Shown here one piece after another: positions 11,274-17,113 of a stretch of 20,816 nt of DNA; the first letter of the stretch is position 1, and the number at the start of each line of letters is the position of its first letter. The stretch lies in the IMG/VR virus record IMGVR_UViG_2565956607_000008, positions 1-20,816 of that record; one strand, written 5' to 3'. Under the pieces are notes generated by a model. It saw nothing but the letters and a program-made list of their open reading frames with translations, was not told the origin of the DNA and made no database searches. Made by a program: the position numbers and the translations under genes. This stretch comes from a virus (Duplodnaviria > Heunggongvirae > Uroviricota > Caudoviricetes).

Positions 11274-11453
11274 ATGCGAGAACTTAACCGATGGTTCAGA
11301 GATCACTACGGTGTCCCGGTCAGGGTCATACGCTGGGAGCCCCAAACACAGCGCGTTATATACCTGCGTGAAGGGTACGAGCATGAATGCTTTAGCCCCC
11401 TCGAGCAATTCAGACGTAAATTCAGAGAAATAAAGGACGATCATGAGCACTAA
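11274..11453 (+). CDS. Small basic protein (59 aa), below the ORF-track size cut-off
   Basis: ATG 11274 preceded by GGAG; translation MRELNRWFRDHYGVPVRVIRWEPQTQRVIYLREGYEHECFSPLEQFRRKFREIKDDHEH; its stop overlaps the start of the replication gene. The alternative ORF 11098..11433 looks low-complexity. Confidence 0.35.
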   Translation: MRELNRWFRDHYGVPVRVIRWEPQTQRVIYLREGYEHECFSPLEQFRRKFREIKDDHEH

Positions 11454-12396
11454 ATTAACAGGATACGTCTGGGACGCTTGTGCATCTTCGGGGATGAAGC
11501 TATCCAGCGTGGCAATCATGGCGCGCCTGGCTGACTTCAGCAACGATGAGGGTGTTTGCTGGCCTTCTATTGCGACCATATCCCGTCAGATTGGCGCTGG
11601 TGAAAGTACTGTCAGAACGGCGATAGCTGCACTTGAGAAAGAGGGGTGGCTCACTCGTACGCAGCGCCGCAACGGCAACCGTAATGCATCGAACGTCTAC
11701 CAGCTCAACGTTTCCAAACTACAGAAAGCGGCATTTTCTCACCTGTCAGTTTCTGACACATCAAAATCTGACGCGTCAAAATCTGATGCGTCAAAAATTG
11801 ACCCCTCAAAATTTGATGCGTCGGAATCCATCAAAAAAACCGGTTTTGACCCGTCAGAATCTGGTGGGGATCCGTCAGTAAAATCAACTACTGATCCATC
11901 AGATATAAATCCTTCTTGTCCGGACGCTTCGCAACCGGACGAACAGGGCTCTGCTGATGAATTTCTGTCACGACATCCTGACGCGGTGGTGTACAGCGCT
12001 GCAAAGCGGCAGTGGGGCAGCCAGGACGATTTAACCTGCGCTGAGTTCATTTGGGGAAAAATTATCAGCATGTACGAACTGGCGGCTGAAAGTGATGGTG
12101 AGGTAGTTCGCCCTAAAGAACCAAACTGGACCGCATGGGCGAATGAGGTTCGCCTGATGGTGATGCAGGACGGGAGAACCCATAAACAAATTTGCTCACT
12201 TTTCAAGCGCGCCAACAAAGATTCGTTCTGGTGTAAAAACGTGCTCAGCCCGTCGAAGCTGCGGGAAAAATGGGATGAGCTGTCGTTAAAACTATCTGCT
12301 CCACTCAATAGCTCCCGCCAGGAATCGTCCATTTCGCGAGCCAGCTTCGACGGGGTTGATTACTCATTGCCAGAAAACTCGGGGTTCCGCACATGA
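11443..12396 (+). CDS. Replication initiator, lambda O-like architecture (317 aa)
   Basis: N-terminal winged-helix-like region, then pentapeptide repeats (SKSDA-like) encoded by 15-bp DNA iterons, then C-terminal domain; stop overlaps the dam start (ATGA). Confidence 0.7.
   Translation: MSTKLTGYVWDACASSGMKLSSVAIMARLADFSNDEGVCWPSIATISRQIGAGESTVRTAIAALEKEGWLTRTQRRNGNRNASNVYQLNVSKLQKAAFSHLSVSDTSKSDASKSDASKIDPSKFDASESIKKTGFDPSESGGDPSVKSTTDPSDINPSCPDASQPDEQGSADEFLSRHPDAVVYSAAKRQWGSQDDLTCAEFIWGKIISMYELAAESDGEVVRPKEPNWTAWANEVRLMVMQDGRTHKQICSLFKRANKDSFWCKNVLSPSKLREKWDELSLKLSAPLNSSRQESSISRASFDGVDYSLPENSGFRT
11751..11835. repeat. Iteron array inside the replication gene (putative prophage origin)
   Basis: Four to five tandem 15-bp units TCAAAATCTGACGCG / TCAAAATCTGATGCG / TCAAAAATTGACCCC / TCAAAATTTGATGCG containing TGACGCGTCA-type palindromes, followed by an A-rich stretch. 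Confidence 0.55.
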
Positions 12397-14225: not shown

Positions 14226-14570
14226 ATGCGTGATATGTATGAAATTTTAGACCGCTGGGGAGCATGGGCTGCAGCTGATAGTAGTGGTGTTGATTGGAAA
14301 CCCATTGCCGCAGGTTTTAAAGGTTTGTTACCTCATGGAAAGAAAACACGTCATCAATGCGATGATGATGAAGGAATCATGATTGACGGCTGTGTAGCGC
14401 GATTGCGGAAGTATAAGCCAGAAGAGTATGAGTTAATAATTGCTCATTTTGTTATTGGTTTCTCATTAAGAAGCATCGCGAAGAAACGGAAGTGTTCTGA
14501 TGGGACCATCAGGAAGGAATTGCAGACTGCAATGGGGTTTGTAGATGGTTGTTTAGAAATGGTTAACTGA
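14226..14570 (+). CDS. Late-gene antitermination protein Q (QuuD-like family; 114 aa)
   Basis: MRD...LDRWGAWAA...DWKPIAAGFKGL...RHQCDDDEG...DGCVARL...CSDGTIRKELQTAMGFVDGCL closely follows the pattern I recall for DLP12-type Q antiterminators. Confidence 0.8.
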   Translation: MRDMYEILDRWGAWAAADSSGVDWKPIAAGFKGLLPHGKKTRHQCDDDEGIMIDGCVARLRKYKPEEYELIIAHFVIGFSLRSIAKKRKCSDGTIRKELQTAMGFVDGCLEMVN

Positions 14571-14594
14571 AGTCTTAATGTGACTTCAGTTAAC
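14562..14594. terminator. Perfect 13-bp-stem hairpin (33-bp palindrome) between convergent Q and the reverse-strand cassette
   Basis: GTTAACTGAAGTC-TTAATGT-GACTTCAGTTAAC; overlaps the Q stop codon; only weak U-tracts on either side, so it may be a bidirectional terminator or a protein-binding palindrome. Confidence 0.4.
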
Positions 14595-14606: not shown

Positions 14607-15068
14607 TTAAAAGCTTTTAAGATATTTGCTTTTGATTTTTTCACTAACACTTTGTAATTCATGCAGTGTTGTGCCAACTTTATCAGCTTCATATTTTGTG
14701 TCATTGGTACATGCTTGGCGCAACTCTGCTATGAAACCTGTATCTTTTGTGCGGCTTGCATCAAGGAGTTGAATGCGTTCACATATAAACTCAACATGCC
14801 GTACGGACGATGTAAATATGAAATAAGATACTCTTTTGTCTTTTTCTTTATTCTCAAGTAGTTCCAGCATTTCACTATAAATGAAATCTAACTTGTAAAA
14901 CAACTCGTCTATCAATCTGTTTATTTCAAGTTTTTTGAGATTGTTTGCATTATTTTTCCGCGCCAAGTAGGCAGTAACTATCCATCCAATGATAGTTAAA
15001 CATATGCCCACAATAGCAATTATGGTAGCTGGTAGTGCCCATAAATTTGGAGTAACGGCTTGTTCCAT
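14607..15068 (-). CDS. Cassette gene C: single-pass membrane protein with helical cytoplasmic domain (153 aa)
   Basis: N-terminal hydrophobic helix (LWALPATIIAIVGICLTIIGWIVTAYLA) then charged helical region; 1-nt TAATG overlap with gene B; GAGGGATG ribosome-binding site; AT-rich. Confidence 0.7.
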   Translation of the reverse strand: MEQAVTPNLWALPATIIAIVGICLTIIGWIVTAYLARKNNANNLKKLEINRLIDELFYKLDFIYSEMLELLENKEKDKRVSYFIFTSSVRHVEFICERIQLLDASRTKDTGFIAELRQACTNDTKYEADKVGTTLHELQSVSEKIKSKYLKSF

Positions 15069-15385
15069 TATTTGGCATCCCTCAGAGCATCATTGATATA
15101 AGTAACAACCTCGGCAACTAATGCCGGATCCTTACTTTTAAGATTTTTCTTTAGGTTGTTAATCTTATCTTTGCTGATTCCCTTTCGCACCAGTCCACCA
15201 AAGGCCTCCTCCAAAAATGAGGATCCATACCCGAAAACCCCGTCAAAGTCAACGCAAATTTCATCATTTTCCAGTATTGCAGGAACTAAATAAAATTCGC
15301 GGAATTTTTCGCCACTATTCTCTCCAAGCGACTCGTAGCGAGGGCCAGGATATCTGGAGAATTCCTTGATATATAAAGTTTTCAT
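15068..15385 (-). CDS. Cassette gene B: STAS-like (DUF4325-like) small protein (105 aa)
   Basis: VDFDGVFGYGSSFLEEAFGGL parallels the anti-sigma-factor-antagonist motif around the phosphorylatable serine; strong AAGGAGAAG ribosome-binding site; ATGA overlap with gene A. Confidence 0.7.
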   Translation of the reverse strand: MKTLYIKEFSRYPGPRYESLGENSGEKFREFYLVPAILENDEICVDFDGVFGYGSSFLEEAFGGLVRKGISKDKINNLKKNLKSKDPALVAEVVTYINDALRDAK

Positions 15386-16482
15386 GCCGCTTCTCCTTCA
15401 GTTGGTAGTGGCACACTCCACTCAACAATTGTACCATTGATGGATTTATGAGCATCCCACATCAATTCGGGCCTTGCTTTCTTCCTTTTAGTATATCTGT
15501 AGTTCCCCTTGTTTGATATGATTCTGAGTTGGGCATGTGTAAAATTATCTATAATTGATTGTAAATCCGTGCCGCCTTTCCCTCTGTAACCAAGTTTTGT
15601 TCTTGTGCGTTTAACCTGTAATGATGCTTTTATATGCTCTGAATCTAATTCAATAGGCTTGCCTATAATTTCAATAAGTTTTGATAAAACTCTTTCTCCT
15701 TGAGTTAATTTCAAAGTTTTGGGAATTCCAACTCCTAAATCGCATATGGATAAAATCAATTTATTATTCATTATTGCTGCAAAACACCACCATTTATTTT
15801 TAATGTTGTTCTTTTGCTTGTCGTATAGATCATCTCTATATGCGTGCTCTACCGAGTTGGACATCGCCTCAATTAGAGGTCTGTATAAATTAGTGTAATC
15901 CGTTCCCATTTTCTCAGTTACTGCTTCTAATAGTTTCCCAGCAATTGTAGAATCAACCAGTTCACCTCTAATAACCTCCCAGCACTTAACAGATGGGTTC
16001 TCTTTCATCTCTCGACCTTTTACCCCAAATGCAGAATATATACCAATACGGTTAAGTACGCTATCAACTACATGATGTTCGCCTTTCTGTGTAGTTTTGA
16101 ATGGAGGGCGAGTTACAGTGTATCTTATATCTGGATAGTTACTTTTTAAACTCTCCAGTTTTGCTAGTAAATATAATCCTGCAGCGGCCGATATGTAAAT
16201 CGTATTTCTGAAGCAAACATATATTTTTTGAGTTTTAAACTGCTCTTGCTTGGCTTTTTTTTCAATATTTTCAATAAAACTTATTACGTTGTCATGGTAA
16301 TTAGAGTTATAGATATCAAGAATAGTAGGTGCAACTATTTTTTCAGAATTTGATTTTCGTATGTTACCATTACGTTTGTATCTTTTGTGTTCGGTTGACT
16401 TTTTGCTTGCGTTTGCACGGAGAAACCTTTTTCTCCTTATTCTTTTTAACACTGAAGTATAGAGCTGTTCTATTTTTTTCAT
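15382..16482 (-). CDS. Cassette gene A: protein with basic N-terminal region and C-terminal GHKL/HATPase-like ATP-binding domain (366 aa)
   Basis: AAGGAG ribosome-binding site 8 nt upstream; N-box-like EAMSNSVEHAY (E205..N209..H213), G1-like CDLGVGI (D248xGxG), G2-like GYRGKGGTDL (about 299..308); AT-rich. Confidence 0.7.
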   Translation of the reverse strand: MKKIEQLYTSVLKRIRRKRFLRANASKKSTEHKRYKRNGNIRKSNSEKIVAPTILDIYNSNYHDNVISFIENIEKKAKQEQFKTQKIYVCFRNTIYISAAAGLYLLAKLESLKSNYPDIRYTVTRPPFKTTQKGEHHVVDSVLNRIGIYSAFGVKGREMKENPSVKCWEVIRGELVDSTIAGKLLEAVTEKMGTDYTNLYRPLIEAMSNSVEHAYRDDLYDKQKNNIKNKWWCFAAIMNNKLILSICDLGVGIPKTLKLTQGERVLSKLIEIIGKPIELDSEHIKASLQVKRTRTKLGYRGKGGTDLQSIIDNFTHAQLRIISNKGNYRYTKRKKARPELMWDAHKSINGTIVEWSVPLPTEGEAA

Positions 16483-16707
16483 TTTACTCGACTCCTTGAT
16501 GTAATAATCAGCTCAGTTTACAAAAACACTAACGCGTACGCAAAAACTATCGTAATCTGTTAAGAGTGGTCACTTCGACACGAACTTAAAACATATTGAA
16601 GCCTCGCTTTTGCGGGTTTTGTTCCGTTCAGGGCTCTTGGGTTGAGATGTTCTGCATGACACATCGCAAGTAAGCATCTTCTGGCGCCTTTGACAGAGTG
16701 TTACATA

Positions 16708-16737
16708 TTGACTAACACAAAGTTTACAAATTAGATT
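16708..16737 (+). promoter_or_regulatory. Putative late promoter (pR'-like)
   Basis: TTGACT (16708..16713), 17-18 bp spacer, TTAGAT/TAGATT (16731..16737); upstream of a non-coding leader ending in terminators before the lysis genes. Sequence-only prediction. Confidence 0.3.
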
Positions 16738-17010
16738 ATCGACATGGTGAATCCCCCTATGCGGTGGGGCGACCAGTCACTTACAGTGATCTGTAAATGC
16801 AGCGCGGGCCATGTCGACTGGGACATGCTCACCGGGAGGCACCCGGCACCATACAATGCTACTAAGCTATTTGGTAGTGGGGTTGCCGTTTCGGCTTCTC
16901 CAGCTATGTTTAAAAGGTAGTAACGGAAAACGAGCGCTCTCCTGGTAAATCGGTAGCTCGGACTATTAGGTGCGCCTCGTTCCGTTGCAGAATCAGTATT
17001 GCCTACCTTC

Positions 17011-17037
17011 TGCCCGCCCCTCTGAGCGGGCTTTTTT
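17011..17037 (+). terminator. Intrinsic terminator (tR'-like) in the late leader
   Basis: GCCCGC-CCCTCTGA-GCGGGC followed by TTTTTTT. Confidence 0.6.
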
Positions 17038-17083
17038 TCGCCATGAATAAGTCTCCCCGGCAAGATGAGGAACAAATCATTTG

Positions 17084-17113
17084 AGGCTGCGCTTATGCGC
17101 GGCCTTTTTCATT
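17084..17113 (+). terminator. Second intrinsic terminator upstream of the holin
   Basis: GGCTGCGC-TTAT-GCGCGGCC (8-bp stem with one G-U pair) followed by TTTTTCATTT. Confidence 0.5.

Follow-up and report, generated by a model that had tools for sequence, protein, structure and literature searches.

CapK (WP_160230705.1) is an HTH-STAS-GHKL kinase that is activated by ssDNA and phosphorylates Ser54 of CapS, a STAS-wHTH protein; the phosphorylated serine is conserved and opens the second helix (Chambers et al., EMBO J 2026, PMC13373217). In the three-gene vapKSC operon, a STAS-GHKL kinase (VapK; WP_135559716.1 in Escherichia sp. E4736) is encoded together with a STAS protein (VapS) and a PIN toxin (VapC). 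VapC is bound and neutralised by VapS, and phosphorylation of VapS by VapK at a conserved serine releases the toxin. The substitution S48E in VapS abolished both VapC binding and antitoxin activity, and protection against phage Bas42 was abolished by each of VapS S48A, VapK F54A and VapC D28A (PMC13373217).

We analysed a stretch of 20,816 nucleotides from a tailed phage (Caudoviricetes; IMG/VR record IMGVR_UViG_2565956607_000008), here called the window, which carries three adjoining genes, A, B and C. We consider it reasonably probable that A-B-C form one prophage-borne module that is built like VapKSC, as a kinase-gated toxin-antitoxin system, and that acts by release of C.

The cassette in the window

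A prophage of E. coli p10A/p10B has the same sequence as the window; its integration site adjoins a tRNA-Arg gene, and its gene content consists mostly of Klebsiella-type phage genes. Among 5,426 complete E. coli genomes the exact cassette was found only in these two isolates, p10A and p10B. It consists of three overlapping minus-strand ORFs, antisense to the Q gene on one side and to the holin/endolysin genes on the other (Table 1), and forms a low-GC island (30-42%, vs 50-59% in the flanks).

Table 1. Coordinates of the cassette genes, their motifs and the flanking features in the window
Feature	Position	Strand	Remarks
Antiterminator Q gene	14226-14570	+	Convergent with C
Inverted repeat	14562-14594	.	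Perfect 13-bp arms, 7-nt loop; between convergent Q and C
Gene C	14607-15068	-	153 aa; single-pass membrane protein, predicted effector
C Thr121 codon	14706-14708	-	Sole near-invariant residue of the C family; [R/K]-x3-T motif
C residues 9-33, transmembrane helix	14970-15044	-	Kyte-Doolittle 2.43; predicted N-out/C-in
Gene B ('S')	15068-15385	-	105 aa, ATG start; DUF4325 STAS-like, predicted kinase substrate/switch
B residues 45-65, VDFDGVFGYGSSFLEEAFGGL	15191-15253	-	Strand, Gly-rich loop, helix N-terminus; near-invariant columns
B Ser56 codon TCA	15218-15220	-	
B Ser55 codon TCC	15221-15223	-	Predicted phospho-acceptor
Gene A ('K')	15382-16482	-	366 aa; STAS + GHKL, putative Ser kinase
A residues ~178-360, SpoIIAB/RsbW-like GHKL (Bergerat fold) domain	15403-15951	-	
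A G3 box G350-T351	15430-15435	-	Both invariant
A G2 box R300-G301-K302-G303-G304	15571-15585	-	ATP-lid-like loop; R300, G301, G303 invariant
A G1 box D248-L-G250-V-G252-I-P254	15721-15741	-	D248, G250, G252, I253 invariant
A N box E205-AMS-N209-SV-E212-H213-A-Y215	15838-15870	-	Aligned to RsbW 'EACTNAVQHAY'
A residues ~49-175, internal STAS-like domain	15958-16338	-	Ala99 at phospho-serine-equivalent position
A residues 1-48, basic N-terminal extension	16339-16482	-	18 K/R, 3 D/E
Holin and endolysin genes	from 17217	+	

The ribosome-binding site AAGGAG stands 5' of the ATG of gene A. The stop codon of A overlaps the start codon of B (ATGA), and that of B overlaps the start of C (TAATG); judged by these two overlaps, the three genes are translationally coupled. 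The inverted repeat between Q and C, which has no U-tract, may serve as a transcription stop for both genes; a terminator scan made no call there. A consensus scan found no sigma-70 promoter upstream of A.

A putative kinase and its STAS-like neighbour

The sequence of gene A predicts a kinase of the type expected for such a substrate, with the domain plan published for VapK. The initial annotation had read N, G1 and G2 boxes like those of RsbW/SpoIIAB in this protein, and all three are present; together with the G3 box they form a core that is invariant in 96-112 homologues (E205, N209, E212, H213, Y215, D248, G250, G252, R300, G301, G303, G350 and T351). In the structural model the G2 loop is of low confidence (pLDDT <50 at residues 297-301). 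The best matches in a structure search, among GHKL proteins, were the anti-sigma Ser kinases SpoIIAB, UsfX/RsbW, SiaB and RsbW. No kinase model of Pfam matched A, the NCBIfam RsbW model matched it weakly (E=0.045), and nothing was matched in a single-sequence search of the PDB. Precomputed annotation of A homologues includes three with PF13581 (HATPase_c_2, the RsbW/SpoIIAB family) and three with PF02518.

The N-terminal extension is basic in the relatives of A as well; the family median is 19 K/R over some 50 residues. The net charge of A is +28, and a conserved basic residue at position 230 adjoins W231-W232. The tail, the charge and position 230 are indirect hints in the sequence toward activation by nucleic acid. 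Position 96, the site of the ssDNA aromatic residue in CapK/VapK, is Y, F or L in the family and not clearly conserved, and Pfam matched no HTH in A or B.

For a comparison with the VapKSC kinase we used a proxy. Searches with the crystallised VapS fragment matched no authentic vapKSC locus in plasmids or IMG/VR, and a search of the phage collection gave one weak match, a human-faecal phage contig (L086). This contig carries a vapKSC-type operon of a 290-aa kinase with weak STAS_2 and HATPase_c matches, a DUF4325 protein (53.6 bits) and a PIN protein, and its kinase stood in for VapK. The L086 kinase and A are about 15% identical; the alignment of the two spans both domains and keeps all boxes in register (hhalign E=0.0019, and in a multiple alignment), and each of them matches almost the whole length of phrog_3364 (E=2.4e-69 for A, E=6.9e-34 for the L086 kinase). 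Each has Ala at the phospho-site position of its internal STAS domain. The basic tail of A is missing from the VapK-like kinase in the alignment.

Gene B had been called STAS-like, and this is borne out: it is an exact 105-aa minus-strand ORF at 15068-15385 that matches PF14213 (DUF4325, 'STAS-like') with E=3.2e-14 and 52.8 bits, above the cut-off of 23. The same domain is present in all listed homologues of B, and RefSeq annotates the gene in E. coli p10A as 'STAS-like domain-containing protein'. B falls below the reach of the Pfam STAS models (PF01740/PF13466). The crystallised VapS fragment matches PF14213 at 52.6 bits (E=3.8e-14), so VapS belongs to the same family as B, with about equal score.

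The SpoIIAA-like serine motif proposed for B is likewise there, as VDFDGVFGYGSSFLEEAFGGL (residues 45-65), with a near-invariant Ser55 at the start of a helix. Across relatives the motif GYGSSFLEEAFGG is almost invariant. G52, G54, S56, F57, E60, F62, G63, G64 and R67 are invariant in 121 homologues (identity at least 49%), 120 of which keep S55 and all 121 S56. A second set, of 68 distinct B copies from the fetched loci described below, has kinase partners only 26-50% identical to A; here S55 is kept in 67 copies and S56 in all 68. Such conservation of the motif, read from these alignments, is far from chance.

The AlphaFold2 model of B (pLDDT 96) is a small alpha/beta domain that has nothing beyond the STAS-like fold, made of strand 2-5, helix 25-39, strand 43-46, helix 55-67, helix 72-80 and helix 87-104, and without the N-terminal beta-hairpin of SpoIIAA/RsbV-type STAS domains. 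In this model Ser55 is the first residue of helix 55-67, the second long helix, and follows strand 43-46; this is the site of Ser58 in SpoIIAA and the phospho-serine position of SpoIIAA/RsbV. A Foldseek search of the PDB (library to April 2026) with the model gave no significant match, and no VapS or CapS chain was among the matches. In the model the serine at the helix start is placed as in SpoIIAA/RsbV; over the whole fold the resemblance to canonical STAS is modest.

Alignment places Ser55 at an acceptor position three times over. In a profile search, the kind of comparison with canonical STAS proteins that had been suggested for B, it aligned to the first Ser of GSSF in 3t6o. With phmmer it aligned, in a match of weak score, to the VapS serine of PDB 9z7o (native S48); VapS has 116 aa in its native form and 134 aa in the crystal chain, which carries an 18-residue tag, so Ser66 of the chain is native Ser48. 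With hhalign it aligned to a Thr of the L086 VapS-like protein. The phmmer search of the PDB, made with B as a single sequence, gave marginal matches only, 'Escherichia VapS' (9z7o) among them. These three independent alignments and the position at the helix start make Ser55 the likely phospho-acceptor, and the sequence comparisons and the model support the view that the neighbouring GHKL protein, A, has B as its partner and phosphorylates it on a serine.

Conservation covers the whole surface of B (PGPR, SGE-FR, GYGSSFLEE-FGG-R), including three invariant arginines, R16, R29 and R67. This exceeds what a phospho-site alone would need, and ligand binding could be an alternative cause. A might not be a protein kinase but an ATPase or binding protein of the GHKL type, and B a non-phosphorylated STAS-like adaptor or small-ligand sensor that binds a phosphate-containing ligand or nucleic acid with its GYGSS loop and the three arginines, Ser55 being structural. 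We think this quite improbable. It would account for the conserved surface of Gly-rich loops and arginines, and it agrees with the weak sequence links of A to Ser-kinase models and with the modest fold similarity of B, but the structural matches of A listed above are to Ser kinases, some members of its family match PF13581, and Ser55 aligns to the functionally proven Ser/Thr of VapS within one Pfam family (PMC13373217).

The initial annotation had cast A and B as a partner-switching pair inside a prophage accessory operon. The operon and the STAS/GHKL pair stand; the sigma-control model does not, since in the 32-kb prophage region and in related loci no sigma factor and no PP2C phosphatase is annotated or can be detected. 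Classical sigma-factor partner switching was rejected for this reason.

The membrane protein C and the triad in other genomes

Relatives of A were fetched from genomes, from IMG/VR (75 loci) and from the isolated Marinobacter phage AS1, giving about 80 loci in total. The DUF4325 gene, B, lies directly downstream of A in every locus with sequence beyond the kinase, and in every locus with sequence beyond B there follows an ORF of 134-188 aa with an N-terminal transmembrane segment, at a spacing of -55 to +37 nt. An iterative HMM search joined all 70 distinct third proteins into one family, and a PIN gene occupies the third position in none of the roughly 80 loci. Identity to the window copy is highest for B (43-56%), intermediate for A (27-47%) and at most 41% for C, which evolves fastest of the three; some of its copies are undetectable by BLAST.

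C is predicted to be a single-pass inner-membrane protein with a helical domain of about 120 residues (34-153) facing the cytoplasm. Positive charges outnumber those before the transmembrane segment on its far side (K/R after exceeding K/R before) in 97% of the 70 family members, so an N-out/C-in topology is predicted. No relative of C was found in Pfam, PADLOC, NCBIfam or the PDB, Pfam gave nothing for 36 members of the family, and a profile search of the family against the PDB returned coiled-coil and helical-bundle noise only; there is no recognisable toxin domain in C and no PIN match. When 1.84 billion representative proteins were searched exhaustively with a profile of the family, no more than 15 clusters came up (46-191 aa), all of them stand-alone, so no informative fusion is available.

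With a mean column identity of 21%, the C family keeps Thr121 in 68 of 70 sequences and R/K at position 117 in 67. A threonine that stands out in this way, behind a basic residue, would suit a scheme in which C is the target of the kinase instead of or besides B, phosphorylation of Thr121 gating C while B acts as an adaptor or pseudo-substrate. We rate this as very improbable: B keeps the canonical acceptor position, the threonine could just as well have a structural role or belong to an interface with B, and what kinases of the SpoIIAB type recognise is a STAS domain in its folded state and not a linear motif, as in SpoIIAB-SpoIIAA (PDB 1TID, cited in PMC13373217).

The hosts of most loci are prophages; nearly all copies of the cassette are carried by phages, and many of them stand close behind the cI repressor gene. 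AS1-like phages have it immediately after cI, in the same orientation, and 186-like Citrobacter prophages have it in the cI-int interval; lambda rexAB is known for this arrangement. An E. coli lambdoid prophage carries it in the early/nin region, with an A that is 34% identical to that of the window. In Vibrio fluvialis it belongs to an island with AlpA and YfjJ-type genes; in V. cholerae it adjoins an AAA_16 protein gene and a transposase gene in a non-prophage island. A published gene table shows the pattern again in Francisella phage KIRK, which has, beside its repressor, a hypothetical protein of 293 aa (Fhv_0046), a DUF4325 protein (Fhv_0047) and a transmembrane protein (Fhv_0048) (PMC7924643). 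These contexts are typical of accessory prophage cargo, and the slots that the cassettes occupy are those of classic prophage immunity cargo.

The kinase-STAS switch may also be real and yet serve the membrane biology of the phage itself, in superinfection exclusion by a block of DNA entry, in lysis timing or in lysogeny control, with C a regulated membrane factor and not a toxin. This we regard as unlikely, if less so than the two alternatives above. The place of the window cassette between the Q gene and the holin/endolysin genes invites it, as do the prediction that C is a small N-out/C-in membrane protein and the occurrence of almost all copies in temperate phages, in many cases inside the immunity region; a trigger by DNA damage would agree with a connection to induction of the prophage (PMC13373217). 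However, the position of the cassette is not fixed with respect to lysis genes (nin region, cI-int interval, V. cholerae non-prophage island), which is how an accessory moron behaves; the window copy runs antisense to the late operon, upstream of a pR'-like region; and VapKSC, the closest relative to have been characterised, is a toxin-antitoxin system of defence.

Proposed mechanism and relation to known systems

In the VapKSC-like module that we favour, A would correspond to VapK, with an internal STAS domain that cannot be phosphorylated, B would correspond to VapS, and C would be a membrane effector in place of the PIN toxin. In the resting lysogen, unphosphorylated B would hold the cytoplasmic domain of C inactive by way of the conserved face around Ser55. 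A cue derived from infection would activate A; by analogy with CapK and VapK, and in view of the basic tail of A, this cue is possibly a nucleic acid. A would then phosphorylate B on Ser55, and phospho-B would release C. Free C would act on the membrane and stop the infected cell, an abortive infection directed against competing phages. No phosphatase is encoded, which fits a one-way toxin-antitoxin or abortive-infection switch and not a reversible regulatory module.

A prophage-borne kinase raises the question of how firing is avoided during induction of its own prophage. If the trigger were ssDNA from DNA damage, as for CapK, SOS induction of the resident prophage should fire the system, and because of this conflict the trigger may differ. 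The basic tail of A and the poorly conserved CapK/VapK aromatic at position 96 leave room for a different one; were infection sensed by the tail instead of through DNA-damage ssDNA, induction of the prophage would not set the system off.

More tentatively, as something possible that we would not yet call probable, the triad may be a distinct, undescribed abortive-infection system that is widespread in temperate phages. A would sense infection, possibly by its basic tail, the ultra-conserved B, phosphorylated on Ser55, would free a new class of fast-evolving, single-pass membrane effector, and the kinase-STAS pair would be a general, exchangeable module that gates nucleases and membrane toxins alike. 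Confirmation of the kinase-gated switch in this cassette would place a defence or exclusion system in many temperate phages, from Enterobacteria, Vibrio, Aeromonas, Marinobacter and Francisella, and would mean that the 'phospho-antitoxin' logic of CapKS and VapKSC is modular, serving a repressor, a PIN nuclease and also an unannotated membrane protein. It would also offer a clean, small experimental system, for which the point mutants S55A, S55E, N209A and T121A are already predictable.

PADLOC-DB v2.0.0 gave no match at E<=1 for A, B or C, so the triad is not a defence system catalogued there, and we found no description of a kinase-STAS-membrane triad in the literature on DUF4325, STAS-like, STAS-GHKL and anti-sigma-antagonist defence topics. 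Among the known systems, VapKSC has the same gene order of kinase, STAS protein and third-gene effector, a role that for C is predicted. In both, the kinase consists of a STAS and then a GHKL domain, the middle protein is a DUF4325 protein with a conserved Ser/Thr at the aligned position, no phosphatase is encoded, and the contexts are mobile or defence-related. The differences are that C, a single-pass membrane protein of an unannotated, fast-evolving family, takes the place of the PIN nuclease, that A has an extra K/R-rich N-terminal tail of ~48 residues, that B carries the signature GYGSSFLEEAFGG where VapS has FASPFF, and that the A-B-C cassette is almost always phage-borne.

As is predicted for A and B, CapK/CapS pairs a Ser kinase of the GHKL type, which contains a STAS domain of its own, with a separate STAS protein that has a conserved serine at a helix start. 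CapK, however, has an N-terminal HTH and CapS a C-terminal DNA-binding wHTH, whereas B is a bare 105-aa domain and no HTH was detected in A; and in the window A-B is followed not by an immune operon but by C and then the convergent Q gene.

SpoIIAB-SpoIIAA and RsbW-RsbV resemble A-B in having the substrate serine at the helix N-terminus of a STAS-type alpha/beta domain. Unlike these pairs, the A-B-C locus is without a sigma factor and a PP2C phosphatase, its output is a membrane protein, its kinase carries a STAS domain of its own, and its B lies below the Pfam STAS models and has no N-terminal beta-hairpin. SiaB-SiaC of Pseudomonas aeruginosa (PDB 6kko) differs in belonging to another Pfam family, in controlling a diguanylate cyclase, in including a PP2C phosphatase, SiaA, and in not being phage-borne.

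Lambda RexAB is a prophage abortive-infection system that is co-transcribed with cI; its RexB is a polytopic protein, and neither a kinase nor a STAS component belongs to Rex. RexAB is prophage-expressed, as the cassette would be, several relatives of which lie directly downstream of cI on the same strand, and in both a membrane protein is the probable executor; there is no sequence or fold relationship between Rex and A-B-C. The kinase-STAS logic of the cassette is already published; its combination with a membrane protein in one triad, the signature of the B subfamily and the basic tail of A were described in none of the papers found and are absent from PADLOC v2.

Flanks of the cassette

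The non-coding gap that separates the cassette, comprising kinase A, the DUF4325 STAS-like protein B and the single-pass membrane protein C, from the holin gene contains a match to the Rfam family STnc100, a gammaproteobacterial sRNA, scoring 76 bits against a gathering score of 47. A promoter-like site and two terminator-like hairpins flank this match (see the table below), and the region is probably the late-promoter leader of the prophage. Closer to the cassette, a segment of ~70 nt upstream of A matches, at 89-98% identity, non-annotated sequence both of Klebsiella phages (Kp4865-4, ST846-OXA48phi9.1) and of three further E. coli genomes without the cassette; this segment may be the edge of the cassette insertion. 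At the other flank a perfect inverted repeat overlaps the stop codon of the antiterminator gene Q. The terminator scan did not call this repeat because it has no U-tract.

Coordinates of sequence features in the window and of triads or operons in three fetched loci
Feature	Position	Remarks
Inverted repeat	window 14562-14594	perfect, 13 bp, 7-nt loop; between convergent Q and C
C Thr121 codon	window 14706-14708	near-invariant residue (alignment A3, the C family)
A residues 96-99	window ~16186-16197	Y-I-S-A; internal STAS domain
A residues 1-48	window 16339-16482	K/R-rich N-terminal extension, conserved across kinase family
Segment upstream of A	window 16523-16594	
Promoter-like site	window 16708-16737	flanks STnc100 match
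STnc100 match	window 16715-16907 (+)	
Terminator-like hairpins	window 17012-17031 and 17083-17106	flank STnc100 match
Diverged E. coli triad	L002 4001-5958	
Mini triad, Vibrio fluvialis	L006 6102-7455	193-aa kinase, 110-aa DUF4325 protein, 147-aa TM protein
vapKSC-type operon	L086 1420-3192	290-aa STAS-GHKL kinase, 125-aa DUF4325 protein, 188-aa PIN protein

Elsewhere in the window, 4.7 copies of a 15-bp unit (11752-11822, 78% matches) lie inside an HTH replication-initiator-like gene (11443-12396), where they encode SKSDA-type peptide repeats. They look like iterons of the lambda O style, that is, a candidate phage origin.

Versions and relatives of the triad

E. coli also has another, more distant triad (L002, CP158447.1), with identities to the window copies of 34% for A, 46% for B and 28% for C. 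Its place is the early part of a different lambdoid prophage, immediately upstream of a hok/gef gene, and the cluster of its kinase has 153 member sequences. Vibrio fluvialis (L006, and likewise L007 and L008) has a 'mini' triad immediately after a full one. Since the mini-triad kinase of L006 matches phrog_3364, the PHROG family matched by A, in the GHKL half only, some versions seem able to dispense with both the basic tail and the STAS domain inside the kinase.

B matches the 441-position family phrog_5816 at positions 343-439 only, which suggests that in some phages DUF4325 is fused to an N-terminal region of ~340 residues; A had no match to this family. Human faecal phage contig MT837343.1 (L086) carries, without annotation, an operon of the type published as the kinase / STAS antitoxin / PIN toxin system VapKSC (PMC13373217), and the acceptor position of its DUF4325 protein is Thr.

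Candidate functional sites in C and A

Thr121 is present in 68 of 70 C-family sequences, a family with a mean column identity of 21%, and R/K precedes it at position 117. Thr121 might thus be phosphorylated as a second site, lie in an interface or have some functional role.

The internal STAS domain of A has Ala99 at the phospho-serine-equivalent position (Ala in 96 and Ser in 12 of 112 sequences). At position 98, 108 of the 112 carry Ser or Thr. The region of residues 96-99 could serve as a pseudo-substrate or be auto-inhibitory. The tail of A has 18 K/R among 48 residues (kinase-family median 19); nucleic acid and membrane are its possible binding partners. The L086 kinase, which is VapK-like, shares with A the Ala at the phospho-serine-equivalent position and lacks the K/R-rich N-terminal extension of the A family.
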